Below are positions 3,316-34,100 of a stretch of 39,296 bases of DNA, in pieces. Positions within the stretch are counted from its first letter, which is position 1; each line of letters opens with the position of its first letter. The DNA is taken from IMG/VR virus record IMGVR_UViG_2541047784_000014; one strand, written 5' to 3'. Below the pieces are notes generated by a model, which saw nothing but the letters and a program-made list of their open reading frames with translations, had not been told where the DNA came from and did not search any database. The translations under genes were made by a program, and so were the position numbers. Source of the DNA: a virus. Its lineage: Duplodnaviria; Heunggongvirae; Uroviricota; Caudoviricetes.

Positions 3316-6072
3316 TTAGCTACTTTCAAGCATTGCAAGACGTGATTCTATTTTTTCGATTCTTCTACGCAAATAAGCTGACTCAAGCCATAAACACTGG
3401 TCAGTACGGATACCCCACCTATTTCCAGCCTTGCAAACCAGAGTTCGCTCTTCTGTTTCGTATTCTTCTTCCATCTCAATTTCGACGCCATCCACAACTT
3501 TAGTGATCATCCTTACCGCCATCACTGGCGCGTATTTATCATCCCATTCATCGTAACAGAGAAGGCCAAATCTGGTTCCATCAATCCCATGCGCGAGGAA
3601 AGTGTCTCTCACTTGTTGTGCTATAACACCAAAATGCCAGCGGGCACCATCTCCCTTTTCCCTGACGGCATCAAGCCAGCGAAAAGCTACAATCCTGATA
3701 TCTCCCCATGCATCCAGAATTGCATCACCTTCATAACCACGAGACATATACAAGCTGAGCTCACTTGTACTAATCGGTTCACTTTTTTCTCTACCATCTG
3801 ATGTGTTTATCGAACCGTTCGCAGAATAAACCTGTGCCCATCTAAATGATGGTGCACCAAGAGATTTGCTGTTATCAATAATTGGTGAAAAATTACCTTT
3901 AATGGCAATATTTCCAGAGTCGCCGAATATATTAATAACTGCAGAGTCATCACCATGGTTTTTTACGCTTAAGTTTCTTGATGAAATATTTATATCTTTG
4001 TTATATCCACTAACATTAATCCATCTTTTACCATCAATGTGATACCCGTAAATATTTCCGTCTGATTGTTCGTCAGGTGACTCTCTAAGAACAATAGCAT
4101 CTGCTCCAGACGACCATTGTATTTTTGTATCTGTAGGCCTCCAGTTCTTTATAATGAACGAACCATCAGTAAACTCCGTTTTTATTTGTCTATTGTCTAC
4201 AAATGCGTCTCTTGGTTTAAACTCACTTGTGTTAACGCTGCTCTGAAGATCAGAAGCAAAAAATCTAAGATTTCCTGTATAACCCTGAGTCTCGGTCTGG
4301 TTATACGCAATCATAATTCCATTTTCAAACTCAGATGATGTTATTTTAACATCACGGCAATCACCAAAAATGCAATTTCCTTTATCAAATGTTGTTTGAG
4401 CTTTGAATTTATCAAACCTTAAATTACGAACAGGGAAACCATCAACCTCTAATGCAAAGGATGCAGGAAGGCCAAAGTATTCTGATGGCTTACCTGATGT
4501 ATGATCAAGAGTAGTGGCTACTGTATTCTCAAAAACAGTCCCGCTAAAATTATTACCAATTGACGGAAACCTGATTACACTTATTGTACCTTGTATTTCA
4601 GGAGAAATACCAGATAGTGTGATGTTAGCTCCATCAAATGATGCATCTGAATACGTATATACTGATTCACTGCCAGCAATTTTAAACTGTTTAACTGAAG
4701 TTATTCTCATCGACTTTTTATGTTTAAATGTCACTGAGCTTTCAGTATTACTTACAAGATCAATCTGAGGGCTATTCCTTATCGCGATCCCTGACTGGAC
4801 ATAAACGTTATTAAAGTGCGTTTTTTCAGGATTTCCCTTCATTGAAAGGCTCCCGTCATTTTCTGTCAGTAGTAGTCCTTTTACCCTCCAATAGCCGACA
4901 ATCTGTACGTTATCAATAACTGAATCACAGCTATCGTATACATGCAACCCTATATCCCAGTCATCACCCAATGAATAAGAATCAGGGTTATTGTATCCTT
5001 CAATACCATTTTTACTTACCATTATTCTCAGGTTGCGTAACTGTGATGCCCTGTTGATACTAACAGCTACGCTCATGGCTTTTGGTGTAGCAGGAGTAAC
5101 ACCTACAGAATCTTCATTTGTAAACTCAGTGAACTTACAAGATATCCCTTCAACAATTTTAATTGGTCTTTCATTAGAGATGTTAAAAAAATATTTGTTT
5201 TTTTCTCCATCACCAGTAAATACAAGATGGGTTCCTTTACTCCAACTTTTTAATAATCTTTCAGGCGCTGGTCTATATGTATCCCAATAATCAATGCCAT
5301 CACCAATTAAAGACACTCCAGGAGGCACATCTATGTTCTTAGAAATCATCCATTTACCTGCAGGTATTCTAACGACACTTGCACCAGAATTTATCGCATT
5401 AATTAACCATTCAGACGCATCAACTTCAAAATTTAATGCAGCATATCTTTGCTCAAACGGAACAAAATCAAGAGCGTTAACGTTATCCCGCATCTTATCC
5501 TGGAACGTTCGGTATACTGCTCCAGAACCATACTGAATAAACCAACCAAAACCACCAACAACTCCGGCGATTGCAGCATCAACATAATTACGCATTGAGC
5601 GATTATTTACAGCATCCTGCTCAAGTGATGGATCTGCAAGGTTAGAAATTCTGTTTTGCTTTGCATCGTAATATTTTGCAAGCAAAGATGGTTTCATCAA
5701 TGCACGTCTGAACCACCCAAAACATTGCTGGATCAGCATCGTCAGGTAGTCAAAAGCATCTTCATGCACTTCGGGGAAAAATTTTCCCTGATTGCGAAGG
5801 TCTGTCTCCTGCACTACATCAAGCACACGATCTATCGTAATTCGCCATCCAGCAGCAAGCGGCGACGGAAGAACAACAGAACCGCCACTATAAGTGCCCG
5901 CCCCAGTTACCGTATAACCGGTATCCAGAACCAATTCTGTTACGTTCCCGTTCAGGTCAGACACCTGAACAACCAGGTCGGATTTTTTGAAAATACGGAA
6001 GGTATACGGAAATGATGTCGTAGCGCCGTTACCGGTGTATTCGTTGTGGTCAACTTCGGTTGAGACCGTCAT
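3316..6072 (-). CDS. Tailspike / tail fibre with T7 gp17-like N-terminal tail-attachment domain and C-terminal S74-type intramolecular chaperone domain
   Basis: GGAG 9 nt before the ATG; N-terminus (YTGNGATTSFPYTFRIF..DLVV) resembles the T7 tail-fibre N-terminal domain; AT-rich central receptor-binding region; C-terminus carries SDGREK and HFGVIAQQV motifs typical of auto-cleaving chaperone domains. Confidence 0.85.
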   Translation of the reverse strand: MTVSTEVDHNEYTGNGATTSFPYTFRIFKKSDLVVQVSDLNGNVTELVLDTGYTVTGAGTYSGGSVVLPSPLAAGWRITIDRVLDVVQETDLRNQGKFFPEVHEDAFDYLTMLIQQCFGWFRRALMKPSLLAKYYDAKQNRISNLADPSLEQDAVNNRSMRNYVDAAIAGVVGGFGWFIQYGSGAVYRTFQDKMRDNVNALDFVPFEQRYAALNFEVDASEWLINAINSGASVVRIPAGKWMISKNIDVPPGVSLIGDGIDYWDTYRPAPERLLKSWSKGTHLVFTGDGEKNKYFFNISNERPIKIVEGISCKFTEFTNEDSVGVTPATPKAMSVAVSINRASQLRNLRIMVSKNGIEGYNNPDSYSLGDDWDIGLHVYDSCDSVIDNVQIVGYWRVKGLLLTENDGSLSMKGNPEKTHFNNVYVQSGIAIRNSPQIDLVSNTESSVTFKHKKSMRITSVKQFKIAGSESVYTYSDASFDGANITLSGISPEIQGTISVIRFPSIGNNFSGTVFENTVATTLDHTSGKPSEYFGLPASFALEVDGFPVRNLRFDKFKAQTTFDKGNCIFGDCRDVKITSSEFENGIMIAYNQTETQGYTGNLRFFASDLQSSVNTSEFKPRDAFVDNRQIKTEFTDGSFIIKNWRPTDTKIQWSSGADAIVLRESPDEQSDGNIYGYHIDGKRWINVSGYNKDINISSRNLSVKNHGDDSAVINIFGDSGNIAIKGNFSPIIDNSKSLGAPSFRWAQVYSANGSINTSDGREKSEPISTSELSLYMSRGYEGDAILDAWGDIRIVAFRWLDAVREKGDGARWHFGVIAQQVRDTFLAHGIDGTRFGLLCYDEWDDKYAPVMAVRMITKVVDGVEIEMEEEYETEERTLVCKAGNRWGIRTDQCLWLESAYLRRRIEKIESRLAMLESS

Positions 6073-6175: not shown

Positions 6176-6192
6176 ATTACCTTTCAGGTAAT
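6176..6192. promoter_or_regulatory. Dyad operator-like site ATTACCTTTCAGGTAAT
   Basis: Perfect 6-bp inverted arms around a 5-bp spacer; member of a motif family found at about twelve intergenic sites; sits between the tailspike start and the LexA-box promoter. Confidence 0.5.
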
Positions 6193-6572: not shown

Positions 6573-6664
6573 TTTACATCGCACTCCTCTTGTGCCATAG
6601 TAATCGGGCACTGGCAAAATCCAGTGCCGGGATTGGTCTCCCGGATTACTACAGAGGCACATAT

Positions 6665-6684
6665 GCCGCATAAGCGGTTTTTTT
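6665..6684 (+). terminator. Putative Rho-independent terminator
   Basis: Short hairpin CCGC-ataa-GCGG followed by seven T; preceded by a stable hairpin GGCACTGG-caaaat-CCAGTGCC (6607-6628). Confidence 0.45.
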
Positions 6685-6838
6685 ATGTGTAAAGCGCACC
6701 TATTCTATGGTGGGCTGTGTGGGGGCACCGAAAGGTGCGCCGGGTTCCTTTGTAGCCGGTAAGACCAACTCTGCACAGTTCACCACCATCTGATTGGTCT
6801 CAGCGGTGGTGATTAACCTAACTACAAAGGTGATCGCC

Positions 6839-9715: not shown

Positions 9716-12700
9716 CTATTTCATCTGCTCTTCAACTTTATTTAGTAACGGTGATATCGCCCACAGGTTCTGAAAAGGTAGCATTTTACGGACCGCGTGG
9801 GTTTGCTGGCTGTCAAATTCTCCGTTAAGTACACCATTCGCAACCGTCGCGGCATCACCGCCAAGATCAAAGGTAGGACCAAGTAAAGCACCAATAGCAT
9901 TACGACTCTGAAACCTTGATACCGGAGGCGCACCAAACATCGCGCCAAGACCAAACCTACCGCCGCTTATGTTCTCAACGGTATTCAGCGGCTCAGAGAG
10001 CCAGCCAAGCATTCCGCCCCGGTCGATCCCCTCTTTCACAAGGTTATTCCAGCTGTAGTCGATATCGCGACCGCTTAACTTCTGTTTCATCATATAGACC
10101 ATTGAGCCAAGCGCAATCGTGCCAAGCGCACCAAGATAGAATGCAGCATCGCCCTGCTGGATACCAGATACTAGCACCCTGTTATGCTGTGCGAAGATAA
10201 ACGTTTTGAACTGCGTGATCATCTTCCAGCCTTCTTTACTAAAAAACAGCGGTGTATCACCTACGCCAGGCGTTACAATCACTGAGTCTACATCTTTCAG
10301 CACTGCAGACTGGAAAATCTCTCTAGCGAAACGGTCATCCCACAGATGACTATGCCCGGTTAACAGCCCGTCCATATCCTCTCCGTGCTTCCCGAATTGC
10401 TCCCCGATTCGGCGCAGAACATCTTCATTGATGCCGACCTGTGCCATCTTCCGCATTTCACTTTTGGAGAGCGTGCCACCAGCAGAAACTTGGCGAGCCG
10501 CGTCAAGTATCCTCGACTGCACTATCATCCCGGACCATGATTTAAGTGCGCTGTTCCACTGATTCATCAGCGTCCAGTTACCGAATTTCTGCGTCATCCA
10601 GTTCAGACCTCGCTCAGCGGCGCTTCTCCGGCTATAGGGGTCAGTAAGATCCGCTATAGCCTTTGTACGCGTAGACAGGACATAATCAAGCCCAACGGCC
10701 ATTTCTCGCAAATCCCTGGTTGCAATTTTCACTGAGTCCATATTTTTAAGCATGCTTACCATTGGTCCGAGAGATTTTCTCAGGCCATGCTGCATCATCG
10801 GTCGCATCAGATCAGTTGCAGCGGAGACAGTCATTCCACCAAGCAAACGGAGGAAGTTAATATTCCTAGCAACTCGCCCGGCACGAACAAAGAAACTGCG
10901 TGGATCTTGAGGTGCACCGTAAGTACCAAGCAGTCGATCACGCATAGCCGTAATATCCCTAATATCAGCCTCCCGTTGCTTCTCAAGAACTGCACGTCGT
11001 TTAGGTGTTTTAGCCTCTTTTATTAGCCGGGTATATTCCTCACTAACCTGACGGATTTGCTCCCCCATATCTTTACGGCCAAACTGCGCAGTCAGCTCAA
11101 TTTCTGGTGCCACCTGCCGGAGATAACTTTCCATGATGTAGTTAACATCTGATTCAAGAAAATCTTCTATACGCTCATCAGGAATAAGCAGCGTTCTGCT
11201 TTTAGTGAAACCAGCCCGACCAACGAGTCTCTCTGGGATAATATCGGCTGGTACAAGCCCGGAAGGTGCGCCTATTATTTTATTCACGATCTCGTCAGCA
11301 GCGTCCTCTGCTTCCTCTCGGGATAGAGGCTCCATCTGCTTCAGTGCTCGTTCGCGGCTTGCATTCAGCCTTGTGGTTGAATTTGCCCGTTTTTGCAGTC
11401 GGCGAAGCTCAGAACGATATTTCCGTGGATTATCCAGCAACTCCATATGGCGCTGATAGACAGGAAGCTCACTCTTTGCCTGCGCTATATCATCAAGGCG
11501 TGTTTTAAGGTCAGAGCTTTCTTTCATCATTCTTGCCTGAAGTTTTTCTGATGAAGTCTCGGCCAACTCTTTTTCTATTCTTGTAAGACGCGCCTGTGTG
11601 TCAGTCTCCTGAGATATAAGCTTATTTCGTTTATCCAGTTCTTCCATGAGTAGAATTTTTTTACCAGACCATTTCTCCGCTTCAGCGATTTCACTAGCGA
11701 GAGCATCAGCGCGCGGTGCCGATTCCTCTGCAGTTTTTAGCAATGAATTTATCCTTTCAATTCGCTGACCTGCTTTGTCAGCACCTTTGGCACTAATCCC
11801 TTGTATCCAGTTGGCAATTCGCCCTCTGAATTCAGTGCGGTCGGAAAGTATCTTATCGAACTTATAAATGCGGGGAAGATAACTTTTCGCCGTCACGACA
11901 TCGATATCCTCAGGAAGGATCCCCAGTTCCTGCATACGGGCTTTTGTGGTCTCGAAAATGGGGCGGATTCTGGCGGCTGCTTGTGAAACCTCAGGAATAT
12001 CACTCTGATCACCACGGCGCATAGCCATGCCAACAGCTTCATTGAACTCAATAAAGTTCATCCTCTTCACGCCGCGGGCGCTAACAGATTTGCTGTACTG
12101 CTGGTAAGCATCACGAGTGGCTTCCATCTGCTTATAAAGCATGGCGTCGTATTGCTTAATCTTAGTCTCGACTGCCGTAAACGTAGCCAACCCCTCATCA
12201 TTTTTGGCGAAGAAATAGTTATTTTCGGCAAGCTGCTGGTTAATCTGACGGGAGACAAGAGATGGTGATTGAGCCAAGCGGCCAGCAGGAGTGACACTCA
12301 ACGTTTTGTTAGCAAGTCCAAGTCCAGCGAGCTGTTCCTGATCGAGTGTGGTATTGAAAACCTGAGCTGCACCAATGCTTTGAGGAGAATCCATACCTCG
12401 CAAATGATTACCTACTGAGTTAACCACTGCCTCGCGCGCGCTAGGTCCAGCAAGTAGCTGTGCACCAGCACCAAGGATCCCACCAACGAGAGCATCAACA
12501 ACAACGTTCGATACGCTCTCCATCGGTGAGCGAGCTTCCTGAGTGGCCTGTAATGCGGCTTCTGATACTCCCCCACCAGCAGCATTCGCCAGGGCAAAAC
12601 GCCCTGCCGTCTCAGCAATACTTCCTCCACGCGCTACCGCCCCTACAGGGATAAACATTGCAGCCACATTAACCGGGTCTATCATTCCCATTGCTAAGCT

Positions 12701-13105
12701 TGAAATAGTACCAGCACCACCCATTTCAGATAGATATTCTCTATCTGTTCTTTGCTTATCGATTCGATGTTTAATTGCCATTGTTTCTTCATGCGAACCG
12801 GAGTTGATAAACGAATCTGCAAAATCTTCATAGCCTTTAATATCTGCTGCATCGTTATCAAATGGGTTATATCCTTCAACCCTGTCAAACTGACTGAAAG
12901 GAGCACTGGCAATAAAGCTACCCAGCGTGTTATCTATACGAAATGCTGCTTGTCTAGACCTTTGAACGCGTTGATCACTGGTAAATGGGTTCACAGCAGA
13001 AAGCAAAGAAGGTGTTTCCATATAGAAATTACTGTCATCAGGTGCTGCTATTTGCTGAATATCCTCGCCAAGCAACTCTTTAGGATCCTGTTCATATATC
13101 GGCAT
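9716..13105 (-). CDS. Internal virion (ejection/core) protein, T7 gp16-like position
   Basis: 1129 aa; Gly/Ala-rich hydrophobic stretches and long coiled-coil region; last large gene before the tail-fibre position in T7 order. Confidence 0.75.
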   Translation of the reverse strand: MPIYEQDPKELLGEDIQQIAAPDDSNFYMETPSLLSAVNPFTSDQRVQRSRQAAFRIDNTLGSFIASAPFSQFDRVEGYNPFDNDAADIKGYEDFADSFINSGSHEETMAIKHRIDKQRTDREYLSEMGGAGTISSLAMGMIDPVNVAAMFIPVGAVARGGSIAETAGRFALANAAGGGVSEAALQATQEARSPMESVSNVVVDALVGGILGAGAQLLAGPSAREAVVNSVGNHLRGMDSPQSIGAAQVFNTTLDQEQLAGLGLANKTLSVTPAGRLAQSPSLVSRQINQQLAENNYFFAKNDEGLATFTAVETKIKQYDAMLYKQMEATRDAYQQYSKSVSARGVKRMNFIEFNEAVGMAMRRGDQSDIPEVSQAAARIRPIFETTKARMQELGILPEDIDVVTAKSYLPRIYKFDKILSDRTEFRGRIANWIQGISAKGADKAGQRIERINSLLKTAEESAPRADALASEIAEAEKWSGKKILLMEELDKRNKLISQETDTQARLTRIEKELAETSSEKLQARMMKESSDLKTRLDDIAQAKSELPVYQRHMELLDNPRKYRSELRRLQKRANSTTRLNASRERALKQMEPLSREEAEDAADEIVNKIIGAPSGLVPADIIPERLVGRAGFTKSRTLLIPDERIEDFLESDVNYIMESYLRQVAPEIELTAQFGRKDMGEQIRQVSEEYTRLIKEAKTPKRRAVLEKQREADIRDITAMRDRLLGTYGAPQDPRSFFVRAGRVARNINFLRLLGGMTVSAATDLMRPMMQHGLRKSLGPMVSMLKNMDSVKIATRDLREMAVGLDYVLSTRTKAIADLTDPYSRRSAAERGLNWMTQKFGNWTLMNQWNSALKSWSGMIVQSRILDAARQVSAGGTLSKSEMRKMAQVGINEDVLRRIGEQFGKHGEDMDGLLTGHSHLWDDRFAREIFQSAVLKDVDSVIVTPGVGDTPLFFSKEGWKMITQFKTFIFAQHNRVLVSGIQQGDAAFYLGALGTIALGSMVYMMKQKLSGRDIDYSWNNLVKEGIDRGGMLGWLSEPLNTVENISGGRFGLGAMFGAPPVSRFQSRNAIGALLGPTFDLGGDAATVANGVLNGEFDSQQTHAVRKMLPFQNLWAISPLLNKVEEQMK

Positions 13106-15852
13106 TATTTGCCCCCTGCGTATATATTGCTCGGAAGGTAATTGGCTGAACCATAACCGAATGGTTTGGTCAGATCTGGAGGAGTATATCCATCTTTATT
13201 GCTGAACTGCGGCAGCGGATTGCCTTCTCTCCGCACTCTAGCCTCATCAACACGTTGTTGCTGGAACTGAATGGTTTGCCTGTACATTGGAGATGTCAGC
13301 TGATCCGGCTTGAAACGAACAGGGAGACCATTTTCTCCAATATAATTTCTCGGTTCTATCGCTCCGTTTGCGTCAGGCTGTAAAACCATAACAGCATAAC
13401 TCCTATCCCTTGCCGTAAGGCCATCAGAAACAAGTATTAAGTCCGTATCACTGCGAGGACCGCCAAAGGATTTTGATTTAAGCTCGCGTTTTTCCTGCTC
13501 CCACTGCCCCTGTATCCAGTTACCAGCACCATTATTTACTCCGTACAATGCCTCAGGTGCATACTTCATAACCTCTGCTTTGCCATTAACCGTAGAAACT
13601 CCCCAGGTGGTTCTGATCATGGCATTGGTCATTTTCTCAGCCTGTTCTGCATCGCCACCTGTCTGTACAAAGTTAGCATCGTAAATTGTCTGGTAATCTC
13701 GCTGATAGGCCGCATTTGATTTTCCTGGATCGGTAATATCCGGAGACCACGAACCAAAGGAAGTCAGACTGCTGGCGTTATTTTGTGCAGCAGTTGCCCT
13801 CGCCGCGACATATTTTTTGTCTCGCATGGCAGTGGAAAGCATCTGTTTCATTCGGTCATCCTGTTGGAACACCTGGCTGTAAGCCATATCAACAGCCTTA
13901 TCCTCCGGCACGCCAGCGCGGGAATAATCGTAAACCTTGCCGTAAAATGCCATCGTACTTTTATCAAGTGTTGCCGCTGCCGCCGGATTATTATCGAATA
14001 ACTGACCGTAGAATTTTGCCATCGGGACAACCAGCGCAGGATCTCTTGATGTTGCTCCACTGTTAAGCATTGTTTTAACCTGAGTTGGTATCATGCCGCT
14101 TTTAGTTGTGACGGTGACCAGTGTATTGATGCTCTGCGGATCAGATATGGAAAACGAAGGCGCGATATCCTGCGCGAAATAACGGTCTACCGCTGCCTGA
14201 TTGTTTTTGTCGTTCGGGTCCAGCGGGAAGTTATTTTGCATTGAAGACACGAACCTGTTTCTTCCCTGCTGAATCTCCCACTCCCTATCCATCTCTTTAA
14301 ATTTGGCCTGCATTTTCTCCCAGCGTTGCTGGTTAGCTGCAAATCCAGGAGCGTTTGGATCCTGTGGACGTAAACGTTCAAGAATGTCTTGTCGTCCTTC
14401 TGGAGTGAGGTCTTTAGCGGCACCAATGACACCTCCATATTGTATCTGCGCCTGCATATCCTTCCACTTCATAGCGCCAATGCGCGGACCATTGGCCCGG
14501 ATAAAATCGTCCTCAGAAGGTAACTTCTCAGGTTTCAATCCTTCATCAAGGGCTGAATATGCATCTTTAACTACGGTGCTAAGCTGGTCCGCATACTGCT
14601 GGCGGTACTGATTTCTCAGCTCATTAGCCTGCCTCAATGCCTGTATTTGCATTTGAGGGCTCATAGCATCAAATGCCGCATTGCCCGTATAACGCTTAGG
14701 TGAATCAAGGTTAGTTAGACCAAGGGCTGCCGAGATACCAGTTTCAAGCTGTTCGGTGCTATAAGGCATACTGCCATTTTCGTGTTTAATAATCCCAGCA
14801 CATAAAGCAGCTAGTGTCTTTGGGTTAGAGATATCAAGCTGATCATTCTCCCCAACACCAAGCTCACCACACAATGCCCTAATATAAGCATCAGTATTAT
14901 TACCATCACTAGCCGGAGCATAGCGATTAACAATCTCGCTAACGGTGTCATAGCCTTGACGCTGGTAAGACAACATATTTTTACCCAACGCGCGGATTCC
15001 ATGCTCAGGGGTAGCAAACGTTGCAAAACGTCCATCGCTACCGATCTGACCTTCCCACGGGTTAGATTTGCTCGCTTCAATATTACCAGGGTTATTATTA
15101 CGTAAACCACGAGCATCCAATGAATTACCATGTGATATTGCACGACTCACACCATCAAGATCCCCTGGCTCTCCATTAACCTGAAGAAACTCGTTGTATT
15201 TTTGAGCGATATTTCCTATCCATGCTTGCTGCCCCATTTGTTCCTTGAGCTGAGTTTTCTGCTGAACACGCCACTCATCAGGAAGCCCATGCGCATCAGC
15301 GTATTGATCAATAGATTCAAATCGCTGCTTGGCTAAATCGACAAATGCTTGGTTATCGCTATATAGCCCCGCAGACTGAGTGACAGCCAATGCATTTCCT
15401 GACAAATACGTTTGATCTTGGAATTGCTGAAACTGCCCAACTTCATATCGACGTGCCTGATTGTAATAAGACTGCATAGACTGCTGGAGTTGAAAGGATA
15501 ATTTATTCCTTTCCTCACTTTCAGGAATTGAGCCTAATAATGCCTGAGCCCTTTCCTGCATATTTTTCATAACAGCGTCACTCTGACCAAGAGCGTTTTT
15601 ACCCTGTTTAGAAATCAGCCCACTTTCAGGGTTGTTAATCTGGTCATCTGCAAATTGGTTAAATTGCAGTAACGCCTCCTGGGCCATAGCAACATTCGCT
15701 TTCTGCCTGGCTTCACCATATGCCACCGCATACTGATCTGCGACATTCGCCAGCACCTGACCTGCTTGAGGAACATCGAAGATCTGAAAACCACCGGTTT
15801 GCACACCACGACTTTGCACCTGGCGTCCGGATGTAGTAGGAACAACAGGCAT
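13105..15852 (-). CDS. Internal virion protein with putative peptidoglycan-hydrolase motif (T7 gp15/gp16-like)
   Basis: 915 aa; central motif GLRNNNPGNIEASKSNPWEGQIG...YAPASDGNN resembles virion-associated cell-wall hydrolase domains; start overlaps the upstream stop. Confidence 0.75.
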   Translation of the reverse strand: MPVVPTTSGRQVQSRGVQTGGFQIFDVPQAGQVLANVADQYAVAYGEARQKANVAMAQEALLQFNQFADDQINNPESGLISKQGKNALGQSDAVMKNMQERAQALLGSIPESEERNKLSFQLQQSMQSYYNQARRYEVGQFQQFQDQTYLSGNALAVTQSAGLYSDNQAFVDLAKQRFESIDQYADAHGLPDEWRVQQKTQLKEQMGQQAWIGNIAQKYNEFLQVNGEPGDLDGVSRAISHGNSLDARGLRNNNPGNIEASKSNPWEGQIGSDGRFATFATPEHGIRALGKNMLSYQRQGYDTVSEIVNRYAPASDGNNTDAYIRALCGELGVGENDQLDISNPKTLAALCAGIIKHENGSMPYSTEQLETGISAALGLTNLDSPKRYTGNAAFDAMSPQMQIQALRQANELRNQYRQQYADQLSTVVKDAYSALDEGLKPEKLPSEDDFIRANGPRIGAMKWKDMQAQIQYGGVIGAAKDLTPEGRQDILERLRPQDPNAPGFAANQQRWEKMQAKFKEMDREWEIQQGRNRFVSSMQNNFPLDPNDKNNQAAVDRYFAQDIAPSFSISDPQSINTLVTVTTKSGMIPTQVKTMLNSGATSRDPALVVPMAKFYGQLFDNNPAAAATLDKSTMAFYGKVYDYSRAGVPEDKAVDMAYSQVFQQDDRMKQMLSTAMRDKKYVAARATAAQNNASSLTSFGSWSPDITDPGKSNAAYQRDYQTIYDANFVQTGGDAEQAEKMTNAMIRTTWGVSTVNGKAEVMKYAPEALYGVNNGAGNWIQGQWEQEKRELKSKSFGGPRSDTDLILVSDGLTARDRSYAVMVLQPDANGAIEPRNYIGENGLPVRFKPDQLTSPMYRQTIQFQQQRVDEARVRREGNPLPQFSNKDGYTPPDLTKPFGYGSANYLPSNIYAGGK

Positions 15853-22878: not shown

Positions 22879-23171
22879 TCCTGTTCACTGGCCTCTTTGG
22901 CCATCTTCAAATACTGTTCAGGGCAATGCGCCATAACGCGCTGAAACAGTTCCAGCGCCAGATTGCGTTGCCCCTCATTAAATGCCATTGCCATAGCATC
23001 CATCGGAGAGATAGCGGAAAACACACGGCCTTTCTCCAGCACCGACCAGACAACGCGACGCCCCTGTTCACTGCTCATGACAAAGCGAATGTCATCAATT
23101 TCACGCTGTGCCATGTCACGTTGCTTACGGGCGTTTTCTTCTTTCAGTTGATCGTCTTCGTAATCTGTCAT
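22875..23171 (-). CDS. Hypothetical protein between portal and scaffold
   Basis: 98-aa ORF, start overlapping the portal stop (translational coupling). Confidence 0.55.
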   Translation of the reverse strand: MTDYEDDQLKEENARKQRDMAQREIDDIRFVMSSEQGRRVVWSVLEKGRVFSAISPMDAMAMAFNEGQRNLALELFQRVMAHCPEQYLKMAKEASEQE

Positions 23172-24847
23172 TGTGATTGCCCACCCTGACCACTAACTGC
23201 ATTCGCCATAGCTGACAAAACACTCGGATCCGAAGTTTTAGCTTCGCTTAGCGTCTTGGCACCCTGTGCCGCCGCCATCCCCATCGCCATCATTTGTTGC
23301 TGCTGTTGTTGCTGTGCCCGTTGCTGGCGAGCCTGCTCAACCTGTTCCTGCGGAACAATGACGGTTGGAGACACTCCGGACATATCAGCGAATGCATCGA
23401 TCGCCTGATCAACGTTGAGTTTGTCGAGAGCTTCTGGTTTCGCTTGCGCAAGTTGACCAATGAAGTTGACCGTAGACGCCAGACTGGACAGGCCGATAGA
23501 CTTCTGCGCCTGAGCCATGACGGAAATGTATTCGACCTTCAGGGGCATACCTTCCATCGCGTCAGGCGGTGGCGGCAGCATGTTTTTACGCACCATCATC
23601 GAGAAAGCGCGGTCAATGAGAGGATTAAGACATTCGTCGTTCAGACGCTCCAGAACCGGCCCCAACATCAGAAGTTTTTCTTCTTTCATTTCGATCACCG
23701 CTTCAACAGGCATCGAGCGGGTATTGATGTTCTGCAACATCATGAACAGATCGACAAAGTAGGCGCTGTTAATGATTTGACGAGTGTCCTGAATGTCTGC
23801 CACCAAATCTGCTGTACTGGGGTTAACCAGATAAGCAGGTCTGAAACCATCCTGACCAGTAATCTGATCGATATACGTGATGTCGCCAGGAAGAAGGGAG
23901 GCACGCTGATTCTTGAGGGAAGTCGGAGCAACCATCGGCGGATTGGTGGCTTTATCAATCAACTGCGACTTGCGCTTCTGGAGAAGCTGCAATGCCTTAA
24001 CAGGTCCAAGCGCCAGCATACCCGGGCATGATGATCCATAAACATCTTCGCCGTTAACTTCCCAGCGCGGAGCCATAATTGGAAACTCATCGAATCCGGA
24101 CTCACGCAACAACTTGTCGTTATCGCCACCAACCTCGTAATAAACCGATTTGAATGGCTTGTTCTTGCTATCCAGCTTCGATGTATCGCGGTCAATGTTC
24201 GGGTAAACCGAATGCATCACTTCGATCCACTTCTCGTAGGTGCCGCTTTCCCACATGCTTTTTACGGATTCGCTGACGTTATTTAGCCCGAACTCCTGAA
24301 CAAGCTGACGAACAGTCATAGAGAACTTGCGAAAACAGGTGTCAACACTGCCACGAGGTGAGTTAGCCAGGTAGTAACTGCCTATCGGGAATGGCATTGT
24401 GCGAATGATGTCCTCGTCATCCTCCAGCACTGCCATTGCACCAGTGCTGTATGTGCCGAGGCTTCCGTATAACTGCGGCAGCGACTGATAGAGATTCGAC
24501 TTATTGAACATATCGTTCATGCGGTTCTGCACCGCCTCAAGCCACAACTTAACAGGGCCATAATCCATCATTTCAGGATCTGGCGTAGCCAGGCGAAACC
24601 ACGGACGCGCGGGGCTTGTGATGCCTGACATCATGCCGCTGGCGAGAGTGCGCGCCGCCATAGTCCCGGTCGAATCAATAATGCGTGTATTGCGTCGATC
24701 GTTACGGTTGACCTCAGAAGTCAGAAAGCGGGAACCACGCGGGTTGATGTAATCACTCAACTCGCGCCAGTGCGGCTCGAACGACTGACGCTCGCTTTCA
24801 AGTTGTGCGAACTGTTTGTTCAATCGCTCTTTAGTTGTTTCCGCCAT
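23168..24847 (-). CDS. Portal (head-to-tail connector) protein, T7 gp8-like
   Basis: 559 aa; Gln/Ala/Met-rich C-terminal tail (QQQQQQQMMAMGMAAAQG) resembles the T7 gp8 C-terminus; RBS GGAGTCATTGAA. Confidence 0.85.
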   Translation of the reverse strand: MAETTKERLNKQFAQLESERQSFEPHWRELSDYINPRGSRFLTSEVNRNDRRNTRIIDSTGTMAARTLASGMMSGITSPARPWFRLATPDPEMMDYGPVKLWLEAVQNRMNDMFNKSNLYQSLPQLYGSLGTYSTGAMAVLEDDEDIIRTMPFPIGSYYLANSPRGSVDTCFRKFSMTVRQLVQEFGLNNVSESVKSMWESGTYEKWIEVMHSVYPNIDRDTSKLDSKNKPFKSVYYEVGGDNDKLLRESGFDEFPIMAPRWEVNGEDVYGSSCPGMLALGPVKALQLLQKRKSQLIDKATNPPMVAPTSLKNQRASLLPGDITYIDQITGQDGFRPAYLVNPSTADLVADIQDTRQIINSAYFVDLFMMLQNINTRSMPVEAVIEMKEEKLLMLGPVLERLNDECLNPLIDRAFSMMVRKNMLPPPPDAMEGMPLKVEYISVMAQAQKSIGLSSLASTVNFIGQLAQAKPEALDKLNVDQAIDAFADMSGVSPTVIVPQEQVEQARQQRAQQQQQQQMMAMGMAAAQGAKTLSEAKTSDPSVLSAMANAVSGQGGQSQ

Positions 24848-24861
24848 TTCAATGACTCCGG

Positions 24862-25068
24862 TTACTGACCAAGTAGCGTTTTACCGCTGGTATTAGCGGT
24901 TGATGTGTCGCCCTGAGAACCGGTAAGCAGCGTAGAACTACGACCAGCAGCAGCGCGACGGCGACGAGTTTCTTCGTCGCGGGCATCAACAACGGCGGCA
25001 TCCTGCTCCTGTGGTGCTGCCTGAACTTCTGGTGTTGCAGGCACTGATGGTGAGCTACCCATGCACAT
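24862..25068 (-). CDS. Hypothetical small protein (68 aa) upstream of portal
   Basis: ATG preceded by GGAGTCATTGAT, nearly identical to the portal initiation region; an overlapping alternative frame (24849-25088) is less likely. Confidence 0.4.
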   Translation of the reverse strand: MCMGSSPSVPATPEVQAAPQEQDAAVVDARDEETRRRRAAAGRSSTLLTGSQGDTSTANTSGKTLLGQ

Positions 25069-25157
25069 ATCAATGACTCCGTACGCAATTAAATTATTAC
25101 CAATTTAACCACATATGATTTATTTATCGTAGGTAGTTGACATTTAACGCACAAATT

Positions 25158-25174
25158 ATTACCTTTCAGGTAAC
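25158..25174. promoter_or_regulatory. Dyad operator-like site ATTACCTTTCAGGTAAC
   Basis: Near-identical to the 6176-6192 site; preceded by a TTGACA hexamer (25137-25142) and a shared AACCACATA element (25107-25115). Confidence 0.45.
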
Positions 25175-25494
25175 CAAAGAGTTCATTCCGGTTACTAACC
25201 TGACTGGCTTGTCGTTAAATTGAACAGGTGGAGTGAGCTTTTATTTTGAGCAGTACGGCGTATGGCACATGCGCCGATAGCGGTCTGGATACGTTTAAGG
25301 GGCACCCTCCCTTGCTCGGGCAACGAACCAGGTAGCCGGAATGTGCAAGTCGAGCGGTTTTATTCCGCGCACGGGGATTCACCATCCTGGCGATTCGGTG
25401 TGACGCCTCGGAAGAGACGAGGGTACAACGATGAGAGCATTTATGAAGCCGCGACAAAGTGTGGCGTCTTAACAGGCTAAGTGCTCTCAGCGTT

Positions 25495-25571
25495 GTGGCA
25501 TTAGCTCAGTTGGACAGAGCAACCGCCTTCTAAGCGGTTGGTCGCAGGTTCGAATCCTGCATGCCACGCCA
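25495..25571 (+). tRNA. tRNA-Arg, anticodon UCU
   Basis: Full cloverleaf: acceptor GTGGCAT/ATGCCAC, D-arm GCTC-AGTTGGACA-GAGC, anticodon stem ACCGC/GCGGT with loop CTTCTAA, T-arm GCAGG-TTCGAAT-CCTGC, discriminator G and encoded CCA; close to E. coli argU. Confidence 0.9.
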
Positions 25572-25614
25572 GAATCACGCCTAAGGACCGTGATGCCAGA
25601 AGTTCCAGGGGCTT

Positions 25615-25657
25615 GGCGGTGATGGTTTCCCTTGAAGGACTATCACCGCCCTTTTTA
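25615..25657 (+). terminator. Rho-independent terminator downstream of the tRNA
   Basis: 9-bp stem GGCGGTGAT/ATCACCGCC with a large loop, followed by CTTTTT. Confidence 0.6.
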
Positions 25658-25734
25658 CAGCAGGACGCCATTGCGATGACTTCATGCTGTAAACCCGTAC
25701 AGCCACGGAAGGCAAAACTCATTGCTTCCAGTTC

Positions 25735-25758
25735 GCCCGGTTCGCCGGGCATTTTTTT
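25735..25758 (+). terminator. Rho-independent terminator
   Basis: Hairpin GCCCGG-ttcg-CCGGGC followed by seven T. Confidence 0.75.
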
Positions 25759-25801
25759 AAGGTGTGAATCATGAAATACGAATTCGATGGATTTTGATGT
25801 C

Positions 25802-25813
25802 GTGACATGTCAC
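25802..25813. repeat. 12-bp perfect palindrome GTGACATGTCAC (copy 2 of 3)
   Basis: Identical to copies at 8800-8811 and 28066-28077; followed 4 bp later by a terminator hairpin. Confidence 0.6.
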
Positions 25814-25817
25814 AAAC

Positions 25818-25844
25818 AGCCAGCCGATGAGCTGGCTTTGTTTT
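25818..25844 (+). terminator. Rho-independent terminator
   Basis: Hairpin AGCCAGC-cgatga-GCTGGCT followed by TTTGTTTT. Confidence 0.7.
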
Positions 25845-25887
25845 ATCCTCATCAGAGGATATCAACGATATTATCCCCTCAAGCGGA

Positions 25888-27363
25888 TTAAGCATAGGGA
25901 TCGTAATCTGTGATGGCCTTGCCTTGCTGGTTCTGCTGCCCGGGAATTCGCAGACGCTTCGACACAGGGAACGCAAACGTCAGCAGTAGCGCATCGCCTT
26001 TACCAGGCGAACGCCCAAGCCGCTCCTTGATATCTTCCTTCGGTTCGATAACGATTTTACCGTCCACTCGAACTTTGTACTCTGCCGCCGACAGATCGTC
26101 CGCTGTTTCCTGGTCATCCAGCATCCCGCCCAGCCTCAGCCATGTCTTGCATGAGTTGAACATCTCCCCACGCTTGTTGAGCATCTGCTGGTCAGTAGAC
26201 GCGCCACCGAACGGAACAAGTTGCCATGTGCGCCCCCAACCGTCACCGATTGACTTCAGACCGGTACCGTAACCAAAGTCGATGAACACTGCGTCAGCCT
26301 GATACAGGTCTTCAAAGTCAGCAATACGCTTCGCCATAATCAGATCGTCGGTAGTCTTGTTGCCAGTCCACAGCACCTTACTGTGTAGCCCCTGCCGCAG
26401 GTATATCACCGCGTCATCAACGCCTGAATATGCCGGGTCAACACCGATTATCACCGGAGCATGCGCCACCTGCGCAGCGGTTACCACCCGTTTCATTGCC
26501 TCATCAGTAAGACCGGTAGGGATAAACTGCAATTCAGATGCATCAGGGAATATGCCGCGCACACGGATTTTAACGAAGTCGCTGTCTTCCCCGTAGTCAT
26601 CAACCCATTTCTGCAACTGCTGTTTGTTAGTGCCTTCCACCGTCCGGCTGTCAATCTGCGCAGTTTTCCAGCGGTGTTTATATTTGCGGAAACATTCACG
26701 GAATCGCCCGGTATTACGCGTCGGGTTTCCGAACGCCACCCAGATAATCTCAGTGTCTTCGTCCGTTAGCGCACCTTCGGCAACTTCCCACACCAGATCC
26801 GCAATGTTCGACGCTTCATCGAATACCACGATGATGCGTTTGCGCTCGTTGTGTAGTCCGGCGAATGCCTCAGTGTTGTGCTCAGACCAGGGGATTGCGT
26901 CAGCTCGCCACCGCTTGTCGTGCCCAGGATCATTGCTGTACATCGCGGTAGCGGTACAGGTAAACCAGTCTTTCGTGATAGCAAGGTTCGACCACTTGAT
27001 AATTTCCGGCCAGGTCTTCGTTCGTAGCTGGTTGTCGGTGTTGGCGGTCACCACGACCTTACAATCCTCGCAAGTGGACATGCCCCAGTTGATCAGCATT
27101 GAGATGAATGCGGATTTACCAATACCGTGACCAGAAGCGCGTGCCAGCATAAGCGGCTGATAGCGCGTCTCTGGATTCTGCAGGTGATCACGTATCTCTC
27201 GGAACGCATCAGCCTGCCACTGACGTGGGCCGGTGGCATGTGCCAGTTCAGTCCCCTCTTCCCCCCACGGGAACGCATAGAGGGCATAGCCAAGCGGATC
27301 GTGAGTGAACCCTGCAATATCCTCGATCAACTGCTCTTCAGGAGATAACGCTGTATCTGTCAC
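25888..27363 (-). CDS. Terminase large subunit
   Basis: 491 aa; Walker A-like ARASGHGIGKS in the N-terminal ATPase region; overlaps the small-subunit gene end. Confidence 0.85.
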   Translation of the reverse strand: MTDTALSPEEQLIEDIAGFTHDPLGYALYAFPWGEEGTELAHATGPRQWQADAFREIRDHLQNPETRYQPLMLARASGHGIGKSAFISMLINWGMSTCEDCKVVVTANTDNQLRTKTWPEIIKWSNLAITKDWFTCTATAMYSNDPGHDKRWRADAIPWSEHNTEAFAGLHNERKRIIVVFDEASNIADLVWEVAEGALTDEDTEIIWVAFGNPTRNTGRFRECFRKYKHRWKTAQIDSRTVEGTNKQQLQKWVDDYGEDSDFVKIRVRGIFPDASELQFIPTGLTDEAMKRVVTAAQVAHAPVIIGVDPAYSGVDDAVIYLRQGLHSKVLWTGNKTTDDLIMAKRIADFEDLYQADAVFIDFGYGTGLKSIGDGWGRTWQLVPFGGASTDQQMLNKRGEMFNSCKTWLRLGGMLDDQETADDLSAAEYKVRVDGKIVIEPKEDIKERLGRSPGKGDALLLTFAFPVSKRLRIPGQQNQQGKAITDYDPYA

Positions 27364-27956
27364 TGATTACCATCCTGACGTTCTTTGAGTCGCTTCCTGG
27401 CTGCCGCTATGCGATCAGCAATTGTCACATTCACATTAACATCCAGGCGTTCTTTGAACGCGTTGACGTCGACGTGCTTACCAATCAGTTCGAGGTTCTT
27501 CACCTTGTCAGGCCATTTAATTTTTTTGAGGATTGTCTCTATCGAATCCTCGTTCATGTTCATGATGGTCGATGACAGATCAAAGCCACTAAGCGTAGTG
27601 CGCCAGATTTTCGGCCACTCGCGGATTGGCTTAAGGCTCCCATCGTCGTTGAGGATGTCGATCACGTCCATCTGGTCGATCTCCACTAGGCGCATGAGAA
27701 CGTAATCAGCACTGACGCGCATTCGTTTGTTGCGCTCCTCCATCAACTCGGCAATCCGTTTTTGAATGCGTTCATCGCGCATCATGACACTGGCTTTAAC
27801 TGCCGCTGTATTTGGGGAGAATCCTGCGTTAATCGCTGCCTGAGTCTGGTTTTCAGGCGTTTTGATGTATGACTGGCAATAAGCCTCCTGCATTGCTGTT
27901 AGTGGCTTAAATTGCGTTGATTTGCGTTTATAGGTTTTAGGTTCAGCAGGCATCAT
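27360..27956 (-). CDS. Terminase small subunit
   Basis: Start set at the ATG pair (MMPAEPK...); helix-turn-helix-like N-terminus; the longer track ORF (to 28052) would run through a terminator hairpin and operator motifs and is rejected. Confidence 0.75.
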   Translation of the reverse strand: MMPAEPKTYKRKSTQFKPLTAMQEAYCQSYIKTPENQTQAAINAGFSPNTAAVKASVMMRDERIQKRIAELMEERNKRMRVSADYVLMRLVEIDQMDVIDILNDDGSLKPIREWPKIWRTTLSGFDLSSTIMNMNEDSIETILKKIKWPDKVKNLELIGKHVDVNAFKERLDVNVNVTIADRIAAARKRLKERQDGNQ

Positions 27957-27972
27957 AACCACCGTGGTAATA

Positions 27973-27989
27973 GTTACCGTTGTGGTAAT
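27973..27989. promoter_or_regulatory. Dyad operator-like site GTTACCGTTGTGGTAAT upstream of the terminase genes
   Basis: Same TTACC-N5-GGTAA family; 17 bp upstream of the terminase small-subunit start; flanked by GGTAATAGTTACC-type repeats (27966-27995). Confidence 0.45.
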
Positions 27990-27997
27990 AGTACCAT

Positions 27998-28025
27998 GCA
28001 AAATAAAGCCGCCATAGTTGGCGGC
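27998..28025 (-). terminator. Rho-independent terminator between the early (Nin-like) genes and the terminase genes
   Basis: Hairpin GCCGCCA-tagt-TGGCGGC (28008-28025) followed on the minus strand by UUUAUUUUG. Confidence 0.65.
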
Positions 28026-28065
28026 AGTATTCAAAACCATCAAATTCATCATGCATAATCTACTC

Positions 28066-30892: not shown

Positions 30893-30909
30893 TTTACCCC
30901 TGAGGTAAT
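30893..30909. promoter_or_regulatory. Dyad operator-like site TTTACCCCTGAGGTAAT
   Basis: Same motif family; immediately upstream of the DUF1064 start codon; followed by AACCACATA (30914-30922). Confidence 0.45.
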
Positions 30910-34083: not shown

Positions 34084-34100
34084 ATTACCTCAACGGTAAC
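34084..34100. promoter_or_regulatory. Dyad operator-like site ATTACCTCAACGGTAAC
   Basis: Second site of the pL-like region, about 20 bp downstream of TTGACA. Confidence 0.45.

Follow-up and report, generated by a model that had tools for sequence, protein, structure and literature searches.

A mobile, pseudoknotted leader RNA joined in register to tRNA-Arg(UCU) in a phiV10/epsilon15-type temperate phage

The leader RNA and the described phage RNAs

GOLLD and ROOL are large, intricate RNAs of phages and prophages that are often found beside tRNA genes. The C4 RNAs of phages P1 and P7, the CI RNA of P4, and the stable RNAs of the T4 tRNA cluster are cut by RNase P from longer early transcripts, at an adjoining tRNA-like feature. 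RNA antiterminators are likewise established in mobile elements (PMC9378689; PMC11658703); put of phage HK022 has a length of ∼70 nt, is made up of two stem-loops, and is present in two copies, putL and putR (PMC9378689). The DNA considered here is a stretch of 39,296 nucleotides from a tailed phage (Caudoviricetes; IMG/VR record IMGVR_UViG_2541047784_000014), hereafter called the window, and, within it, the region around a tRNA-Arg(UCU) gene at 25495-25571. The leader of this tRNA was found to be a conserved, pseudoknotted RNA that has neither an Rfam family nor an annotation, and it is the most notable feature of the region. The original prediction had described the module upstream of the tRNA as a promoter with an operator. 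Both are there (TTGACA at 25137-25142, palindrome at 25159-25173), but ∼240 of the module's 330 nt are taken up by the pseudoknotted RNA.

The window represents a phiV10/epsilon15-type temperate podophage. The 1,041 bases around the unit are 97.5% identical to Escherichia phage phiv142-3, 97-98% identical to phiV10, O157 typing phages 9 and 10, TL-2011b, and others (genus Uetakevirus), and 99% identical to prophages of many E. coli chromosomes. The parts of the unit are listed here, where A1 stands for the alignment of the window with phiv142-3, phiV10, SPN9TCW, and one Klebsiella phage (epsilon15 was compared separately), and R1 for the covariance model of the leader.

25137-25165, plus strand: putative sigma-70-type promoter, read directly from the sequence, with −35 TTGACA at 25137-25142, a 17-nt spacer, and a weak −10 TACCTT at 25160-25165
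25159-25173, no strand: repressor-type operator TTACCTTTCAGGTAA, a perfect palindrome that overlaps the −10 hexamer
25174-25254, plus strand: 5′ leader that only the Uetakevirus version of the module has, partly conserved in A1
25255-25429 (175 nt), plus strand: pseudoknotted 5′ domain (R1, 146.9 bits, E = 3.7e-42, single copy in the window)
25426-25495, plus strand: closing helix, 5′ strand CAACGAUGAGAGCA at 25426-25439 and 3′ strand UGCUCUCAGCGUUG at 25482-25495, enclosing a hypervariable insert (25442-25481)
25495-25571, plus strand: tRNA-Arg, anticodon UCU, with encoded CCA (ARAGORN, tct at position 35, and Rfam), which fills the cassette slot of the module
25574-25594, plus strand: conserved hairpin AUCACG-CCUAAGGAC-CGUGAU, directly 3′ of the cassette and invariant in A1
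25615-25657, plus strand: terminator T1, with a 14-bp stem and CUUUUUA after it, which belongs to the mobile module
25658-25734, plus strand: T1-T2 spacer with a hairpin ACAGCA..UGCUGU and a near-invariant loop GGACGCCAUUGCGAUGAC (A1)
25735-25758, plus strand: terminator T2, GCCCGG-UUCG-CCGGGC followed by seven U
25759-25817, plus strand: empty cargo slot with a ribosome binding site (AAGGTG), an 8-codon stub (25771-25797), and the palindrome GTGACATGTCAC (25802-25813)
25818-25845, probably both strands: terminator T3, the 3′ end of the unit, 43 nt beyond the stop codon of the large terminase gene on the other strand

The leader RNA is outside Rfam 15, put, the nut and rrn antitermination sites, and tmRNA. 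When the versions of the window and of loci L012, L034, and L006 were compared with Rfam 15, nothing reached the gathering threshold and nothing was matched at E up to 10; six further loci gave nothing at E up to 0.1, and the tRNA-like cassettes described below gave nothing either. ARAGORN reported no tmRNA in the window or in related loci. No description of the element was found in the literature when it was searched by conserved 15-19-mers, by phage name, and by topic, the P1 genome paper being outside this search. Judged by analogy, the leader RNA would work most like the RNase P-processed phage RNAs (C4, CI) or like the RNA antiterminators (put). The likeness to put is one of position: in its lambdoid carriers, the element stands directly behind the early leftward promoter and upstream of terminators, and there is no N gene. 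Unlike put, it consists of a 175-nt pseudoknotted core, a closing helix, and a cassette, and it occurs as a single copy. Model R1 found no match in the immunity region of HK022 (23.5-32.5 kb), and this, together with size and structure, rules out homology to put. The element is, like GOLLD and ROOL, a large phage RNA next to a tRNA; it differs from them in being smaller, in belonging to Enterobacterales hosts, in standing in fixed register with one tRNA or tRNA-like cassette, and in the lack of any Rfam match at the E-values given above. It has no sequence or model similarity to the C4, CI, and T4 RNAs, and the genuine C4 RNA of the window lies elsewhere (6703-6790). The anti-sRNAs (antagonists of small RNAs) AgvB and AsxR of enterohemorrhagic E. 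coli prophages, 51-60 nt long and located at the PR′ moron site, are of a different class.

Fold, cassette slot, and spread of the element

The leader at 25255-25495 is non-coding and strongly structured, and near-invariant blocks alternate in it with hypervariable stretches. A 72-codon open reading frame (ORF; 25262-25480) is disrupted by a 1-nt indel between the window and phiv142-3 and by many non-triplet indels in A1, and it matched no Pfam family. Because indels break every frame, a coding role for the leader (25174-25494) is excluded. The 5′ domain contains, in this order, the 9-bp hairpin P1, P2 with a variable insert, the invariant GGUAGCCGGAAUGUGCAAG, a variable P3 region, P4, and P5, a hairpin with the loop GAAGAGA. 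The loop of P4, CACC (25405-25408), forms a pseudoknot by pairing with GGUG downstream (25422-25425). In a MAFFT alignment of 29 diverse copies (A2), for which five helices were named (P1, P2, P4, the pseudoknot, and P5), 92.2% of the cells were paired, compared with 26-50% when the partners were slid by 1-3 columns. Both sides had changed in 14 of the 30 pairs (74 cells), and the covariation score of 0.289, versus 0.132 in shuffles, was reached by none of 500 shuffles. The pseudoknot takes part in this covariation, with CACC/GGUG replaced by AACC/GGUU in lambdoid copies. An independent set of 23 species-representative hits that had been kept outside model building (A4) gave 90.8% paired cells and 12 two-sided pairs, again reached by 0 of 500 shuffles; A4 was fitted to the model and hence leans towards the structure, a bias from which the MAFFT-based A2 is free. 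The conserved G-U pairs identify the plus strand as the transcribed RNA strand. RNAalifold added a pairing between the invariant GCACAU of helix P1 and AUGUGC in the invariant 19-mer GGTAGCCGGAATGTGCAAG; neither side varies, and this pairing could be a second pseudoknot or an alternative conformer.

The closing helix has the form CAAC-GAU-GAGAGCA ... UGCUCUC-AGC-GUUG, its insert measures 36 to ∼200 nt across the variants, and its last G (25495) is at the same time nucleotide 1 of the tRNA. Energies of −20 to −34 kcal/mol were obtained with duplexfold for most variants. The inner pairs covary (GC 25/AU 10; AU 28/CG 4/GC 3), and the outer 3′ strand, GUUGUGG, is invariant, with a partner strand that varies by wobble-compatible changes only. 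GUUGUGG is complementary to the 5′ strand of the closing helix and also to CCACAAC at the 3′ end of tRNA-like cassettes, and these two pairings are mutually exclusive; the tRNA-Arg version present in the window has no CCACAAC partner.

Hairpin P5 with its GAAGAGA loop resembles boxB of lambda nutL, and UGCUCUC/UGCUCUUU resembles boxA. GUUGUGG resembles boxC (UCUGUGUGGG), and the order of these resemblances matches boxB, boxA, boxC. Unlike in nut and rrn sites, however, the boxA-like stretch is paired, in a helix of −25 to −30 kcal/mol, and its distance to the boxC-like stretch is 3-4 nt instead of 18-19 nt. One variant (L158) has a quite different sequence at the boxA-like stretch. Reading UGCUCUC..GUUGUGG as boxA and boxC of an rrn or nut site is weak, given the pairing, the wrong spacing, the one variant without it, and the fact that both strands vary about equally; the resemblance is a lead only.

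The slot for a cassette was surveyed in 144 non-redundant contexts, with the following outcome.

29 of 144 contexts: tRNA-Arg(UCU) directly after the element
15 of 144 contexts: tRNA-Ile2(CAU) directly before the element (phage P1 type)
1 of 144 contexts: tRNA-Ile(aat) ∼530 nt downstream of the element
99 of 144 contexts: no tRNA detected next to the element

Where there is no tRNA, the slot mostly holds an acceptor-closed RNA that starts with GUGGU and ends with (A/G)CCAC followed by AAC, and some of these tRNA-like cassettes have a D-arm-like hairpin together with a canonical T arm (GGUUCGAUUCC). In the Salmonella Uetake-like prophages of loci L042, L066, and L122, a tRNA-like cassette is located exactly at the position of the window's tRNA-Arg. 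The cassette of mEp460 can be given an acceptor-closed fold that is no better than that of shuffles (z = −0.8), so that the designation tRNA-like rests on the conserved ends and on the canonical T arms of a few variants. The hairpin AUCACG..CGUGAU follows the tRNA-like cassettes of lambdoid and other loci as well. The pattern of T1 (UUGGCGGU..ACCGCC CUUUUUACA) was found in 66 of 132 contexts, lambdoid ones included, and its stem covaries; the sequence of the T1-T2 spacer follows T1 also in several loci outside the Uetakeviruses. T1 and the spacer are not local features but conserved parts of a mobile module. As far as its sequence tells, the mobile unit is an RNA of ∼400-500 nt composed of the 5′ domain, the closing helix, a cassette, the hairpin, and T1; the tRNA is a part that can be exchanged for others. 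In mEp460 (L006, ∼2866-2880) and at homologous lambdoid sites, the tRNA-like cassette ends in the 3′ tail CCACAACA. It contains CACAACA, which is the consensus target of the GcvB R1 seed and is used by the prophage anti-sRNA AgvB (PMC4104026); this likeness may be coincidental because the same bases are complementary to GUUGUGG inside the module.

When the leader alone was used as the query, BLAST retrieved lambdoid phages (mEp460, cdtI, Stx2c and Stx2a phages, Ayreon), P1, P7, D6, SJ46, and RCS47, phages of Klebsiella and Enterobacter, and 591 plasmids, most of them P1-like. The invariant 19-mer is present in at least 120 contigs of IMG/VR, among which 110 core variants can be told apart, and in species representatives of at least 12 Enterobacterales genera. 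Of 5426 complete E. coli genomes, 1840 (34%) carry the element, and no annotated feature lies under it among the matches listed. The element is absent from K-12 (CPS-53), ST64B, and HK022. R1 found a single copy in the window and likewise in the whole genome of mEp460; with the filters off, neither contained a second, diverged copy behind the rightward promoter. In 61 loci, the element is preceded on the same strand by a gene for a cI of the S24/LexA type, a terminator, and an operator-bearing promoter, which is the position of pL/nutL/putL. Phage P1 has just the 5′ domain, placed between trnI and ban within the operon of ban, which C1 controls, and a P1-like locus (L041) contains the full module followed by a Tad2-like gene.

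Several of these contexts are worth recording in their own right. The leader of ban in phage P1 (L005, AF234173; 826-979 and 2411-2682) comprises a dicF-like region, tRNA-Asn, tRNA-Thr, tciABC, tRNA-Ile, and the 5′ domain of the element, followed by ban, and thus belongs to an RNA-rich early operon. Tandem copies of the element are found in locus L025 (3993-4153 and 4800-4958, minus strand), 650 nt apart and with an ORF on the opposite strand between them; the downstream copy is degenerate, the 19-mer and P4 being mutated, and the locus is a snapshot of duplication and decay. A lambdoid copy of the Klebsiella type (L129, OM816834; 2378-2945) is flanked by five hairpins of the form CCGGGAAAGACCGG that look like repeated boxB-type sites. 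The host label of this record, “Stenotrophomonas phage,” may be doubtful because the sequence equals that of Klebsiella-type loci. In epsilon15 (L007, 2550-2620), a natural deletion has fused the P2 insert with the 3′ half of T1; core and tRNA are gone, T2 and gp50 are kept, and the stretch homologous to 25174-25254, annotated as “RNaseIII, mRNA processing,” is the leader upstream of the remnant of the element.

Probable early control and possible functions

A1 shows conservation of both the −35 hexamer and the operator. The operator motif, TTACC-N5-GGTAA, occurs at 10 exact sites in the window and, when up to two mismatches are allowed, at 36 sites, compared with 10.9 ± 3.1 in shuffles. Three of the exact sites (33311, 34023, and 34085) lie around a helix-turn-helix repressor gene and the early rightward promoter, the one at 34085 just downstream of the TTGACA of this main early promoter. 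Three more (6177, 6557, and 7598) lie around a P1-like C4/isrK immunity locus, and the 15-mer at 6177 is identical to the site at 25159. The others are at 27974, upstream of the terminase genes, at 30894 and 30956, and at 25159, in the tRNA unit, where the operator motif of the immunity region overlaps the putative promoter, the arrangement of a repressor-controlled early promoter. Since the operator at 25159 is also that of the early promoters, the unit would be an early, repressor-controlled accessory unit. Rather than as part of the late operon, as was assumed originally, it is best understood as one of several early units that are dispersed over the genome and controlled by the repressor, separate from the minus-strand blocks on either side, and in this respect the phage would resemble P1 with its C1 operators. 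The ten scattered exact palindromes are themselves a dispersed operator network of the P1 C1 kind. In the immunity locus (6608-6790), the gene for the Hfq-binding RNA isrK (6608-6684, plus strand; Rfam, 74.7 bits) is directly followed by that for the C4 antisense RNA (78.6 bits); the locus is of the immI type of P1/P7, is located in a podophage, and is flanked by three exact operators.

The three successive plus-strand terminators that had been predicted downstream of the tRNA were recovered by a terminator scan (25615-25650, 25735-25750, and 25818-25837; a total of 4 sites in 2 kb vs 1.6 in shuffles) and by an independent energy scan of the hairpins, which gave −22, −11.2, and −12.9 kcal/mol for T1, T2, and T3, respectively. 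At 25615, 25735, and 25818, a GC-rich hairpin is followed by a U-run, as in intrinsic terminators, and the sites are predicted to act as such. Between T2 and T3, relatives carry a cargo gene, the ribosome binding site of which (AAGGUG) begins ∼3 nt past the U-run of T2. The products of phiV10p03 and epsilon15 gp50 belong to PF13876 (N4 gp49/Sf6 gp66 family), the Klebsiella phage has a Tad2-like gene (PF11195), and SPN9TCW_003 (168 codons) is unrelated; in PHROGs, the cargo genes are of “unknown function” throughout, save for a protease-like label on SPN9TCW_003. In phiv142-3, as in the window, the slot is reduced to the ribosome binding site and an 8-codon stub. The interval of ∼85 nt between T2 and T3, once proposed to define a short RNA, is a deletion scar or empty slot, because relatives hold a protein-coding gene there. 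T3 is probably bidirectional, because the same hairpin is annotated in the phiV10 record as a minus-strand rho-independent terminator for the terminase genes. The 12-bp perfect palindrome GTGACATGTCAC just before T3 is kept in phiV10, SPN9TCW, and the Klebsiella phage (with two changes), whatever the cargo, and may be a protein-binding site.

A course of events can be proposed for the unit. Once the repressor leaves the operator at 25159-25173, the host RNA polymerase would start near 25172 and produce one primary transcript containing the ∼80-nt leader, the 175-nt pseudoknotted domain, the closing helix with its insert, the tRNA-Arg, the hairpin, and T1. A cut by RNase P at 25494/25495 would release the tRNA and, at the same time, give the structured RNA a defined 3′ end. 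Polymerases reading through past T1 would transcribe the spacer, T2, and the empty cargo slot and stop at T3. The structured RNA may then act, together with the tRNA or tRNA-like cassette, on a partner in the host, either the tRNA-handling machinery or a defence system. The explanation that we consider best as a whole, a self-contained, repressor-controlled early accessory RNA unit with a mobile structured RNA as its product, is assigned a probability of about 0.5. The more specific proposal that the RNA at 25255-25657 represents an undescribed class of composite phage RNAs is put forward with confidence just short of an even bet; such RNAs would be made right after loss of the repressor, with the host's machinery for tRNA handling, a defence directed against tRNAs, or RNA polymerase as their target, and the tRNA-Arg of the window would be a working tRNA recruited into a slot for tRNA mimics.

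The view that we favour over a cis-acting antiterminator, tentatively and as one that may well prove wrong, is that the structured RNA is a processed, stable product acting with the cassette and not merely a transcriptional signal. In its favour, a terminator and a processing signal of the tRNA type come with the module; its invariant loops are of the kind that contacts a partner; and the whole RNA part remains 97-99% identical in units without a cargo gene, the window included, where nothing downstream is left to regulate. Several observations weigh on the other side. A stricter consensus scan made no promoter call at 25137, and the −10 hexamer TACCTT matches the consensus at only 3 of 6 positions; promoter activity, the transcription start, the processing site, the stability of the RNA, and a role in trans are what we infer from the arrangement of the sequence. 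Phage P1 retains the 5′ domain only, with neither cassette nor T1. Epsilon15 is viable with most of the element and the tRNA deleted, which makes the module dispensable. In phages other than Uetakeviruses, the module lacks its own promoter and is always located between an early promoter and downstream genes, a position that would fit a cis-acting role equally well.

Such a role could be that of a processive antiterminator akin to HK022 put, EAR, conAn, or canT: the nascent RNA would bind or modify the polymerase, which would then read through T1 and T2 into the cargo or early genes, with the tRNA as a passenger. We consider this unlikely. In its favour, the element is invariably close to a promoter and shares its strand with the genes that follow, 61 loci having it at the nutL/putL position. 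Strong terminators separate it from these genes, with a ribosome binding site that abuts the U-run of T2 and so leaves no room for another promoter, and mEp460 has no N-like gene before the terminators. At least one plus-strand terminator is present within 600 nt in 79% of the contexts, but so are minus-strand control terminators in 57%, and this difference discriminates weakly. Against an antiterminator, the element is two to three times larger and more intricate than put, and with one copy per genome, the rightward operon is left without a partner. It also stays nearly unchanged where no gene follows T1/T2, as in the window. In addition, epsilon15 lacks the element yet has T2 and a cargo gene, phage P1 has no terminator between the element and ban, and T1 itself travels within the module. 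A leader that senses a ligand or factor in the manner of a riboswitch is improbable. Its 5′ domain would bind a small molecule, a tRNA, or a protein, and binding would decide whether GUUGUGG pairs in the closing helix or with the cassette's 3′ end and would thereby control processing or read-through. Invariant loops and two candidate pseudoknots are typical of aptamers, and both the mutually exclusive pairings of GUUGUGG and the alternative long-range GCACAU/AUGUGC pairing from RNAalifold would suit a switch. Yet no Rfam riboswitch was matched at E up to 10. The cargo genes have unrelated functions and therefore point to no shared metabolite, and in the window the tRNA version is without a CCACAAC partner; because the segments that would switch do not vary, covariation is uninformative on the alternatives.

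That the unit is an ordinary phage tRNA gene with a long, minor precursor leader that aids stability or processing, its conservation reflecting recent horizontal spread, also has little to recommend it. The tRNA is annotated in sister phages, tRNA-Arg(UCU) is common in phages for rare codons, the codon excess described below is real, and epsilon15 lives without leader and tRNA, all of which such a gene would account for; it would not account for the 99 of 144 contexts in which the element has no adjoining tRNA. Moreover, ∼70% identity with compensatory pairs and invariant 19-nt blocks across genera cannot be explained by recent spread alone. Least credible by far is an element that acts as DNA, as a protein-binding, recombination, or packaging site. 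Its location between terminase and portal genes in Uetakeviruses would agree with this, as would the helix P1 of some variants, which reads as the DNA palindrome GGCACATGTGCC. The conserved G-U pairs, however, would turn into A-C mismatches if the opposite strand were read, and the pseudoknot shows covariation. The element always points the same way as the transcription unit that follows it, and the contexts are as unrelated as the ban leader of phage P1 and the region downstream of lambdoid cI.

What has come to light is a large, covarying, pseudoknotted RNA that is always placed where early transcription begins and that is joined in register with a tRNA or tRNA mimic. Because the phages and hosts concerned are among the best studied, an overlooked RNA of this size would be a useful new object. 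Should the processed, structured RNA product be confirmed, it would be a new tRNA-linked early RNA, possibly in an anti-defence locus, given the Tad2-like cargo genes; should the element turn out to be an antiterminator, it would be a new RNA antiterminator.

The tRNA, codon usage, and flanking genes

ARAGORN found exactly one tRNA in the whole window, the tRNA-Arg(tct) of 25495-25571. It is encoded on the plus strand, and the terminase and portal genes on either side of the unit are on the minus strand, as originally described. The claim that it is well formed was borne out by the covariance model: it scored 73.3 bits with Rfam RF00005 (gathering threshold 29; E = 2.4e-14) and is a member of this family. 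Its D-loop is AGUUGGACA, with G18-G19-A20, its anticodon loop CUUCUAA, with C35, and the discriminator G73 is followed by the encoded CCA. Anticodon UCU, A20, C35, and the 3′ CCA are features of a tRNA-Arg isoacceptor, and its D and T arms are of the argU type. By all appearances, this is a normal, functional-looking tRNA. On its own it is routine, a rare-codon tRNA of a temperate phage that has already been annotated in relatives (phiv142-3, O157 typing phages 9 and 10, SPN9TCW, SPC32H/N, and Klebsiella phage ST512-KPC3phi13.3). The relatives have an equal tRNA-Arg(UCU) gene at the equal place, between the genes for the large terminase subunit (TerL) and the portal, with 97-98% identity in E. 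coli phages; in the tRNA itself there is no difference. The record of phiv142-3 (L001, MN187550; 3153-3221) gives the tRNA-Arg a length of 69 nt and assigns it to the wrong strand. That of phiV10 (L002, DQ126339; 3153-3404) lists no tRNA and has a hypothetical coding sequence (CDS), p04, antisense over it. The present analysis corrects these errors in the public records, namely strand and length of the tRNA, a spurious CDS over the tRNA, and an RNA region left blank.

That a UCU tRNA would decode the rare codons AGA and AGG had also been pointed out, and codon usage was compared with the same ORF caller applied to the window and to 50 kb of the K-12 core genome.

Phage window: AGA 8.95 and AGG 6.17 per 1000 codons, 25% of the Arg codons
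K-12 core genome, 50 kb: AGA 2.36 and AGG 1.18 per 1000 codons, 6.2% of the Arg codons

The excess in the phage (25% vs 6.2% of the Arg codons) is thus real. It is concentrated in the tailspike gene (3316-6072), in large genes at 9716-15852, and in several early genes. The tRNA-Arg most likely supplies decoding of AGA, and of some AGG, most of all for the tailspike gene. Against a function in codon supply, AGA and AGG are nearly absent from the capsid, portal, and terminase genes, and codon supplementation is only a correlation. Alternatively, the tRNA-Arg may serve in anti-defence, as a substitute for a host tRNA destroyed by a nuclease, which would fit the anti-defence cargo of the slot. The tailspike-like gene (3316-6072, minus strand), which has a Peptidase_S74 chaperone domain, is by far the gene of the phage most loaded with rare codons, AGA or AGG making up 31 of 50 Arg codons. 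This load suggests that it was recently acquired from a low-GC source.

The genes on both sides of the unit, and a control block next to it, are the following.

23168-24847, minus strand: portal (PF12236, E = 1.6e-187)
25089-25132 (44 bp), no strand: invariant divergent control block between a small minus-strand ORF (start at 25068) and the −35 hexamer
25888-27363, minus strand: TerL, named from annotated relatives
27360-28052, minus strand: TerS, the small terminase subunit (match to PF03592)

The placement of the unit between terminase and portal genes, asserted from the outset, agrees with the matches to PF12236 and PF03592 and with the naming of TerL in relatives; TerL itself (25888-27363) matched no Pfam family. 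The block at 25089-25132 is identical in E. coli, Salmonella, and Klebsiella phages, and the adjoining coding DNA is just 70-80% identical (A1). It contains an operator half-site (ATTATTACC, 25093-25101), and repressor and IHF sites are marked in the homologous region of the epsilon15 record. Judging from this arrangement, the block is probably a control region common to both directions, for the portal/head operon.

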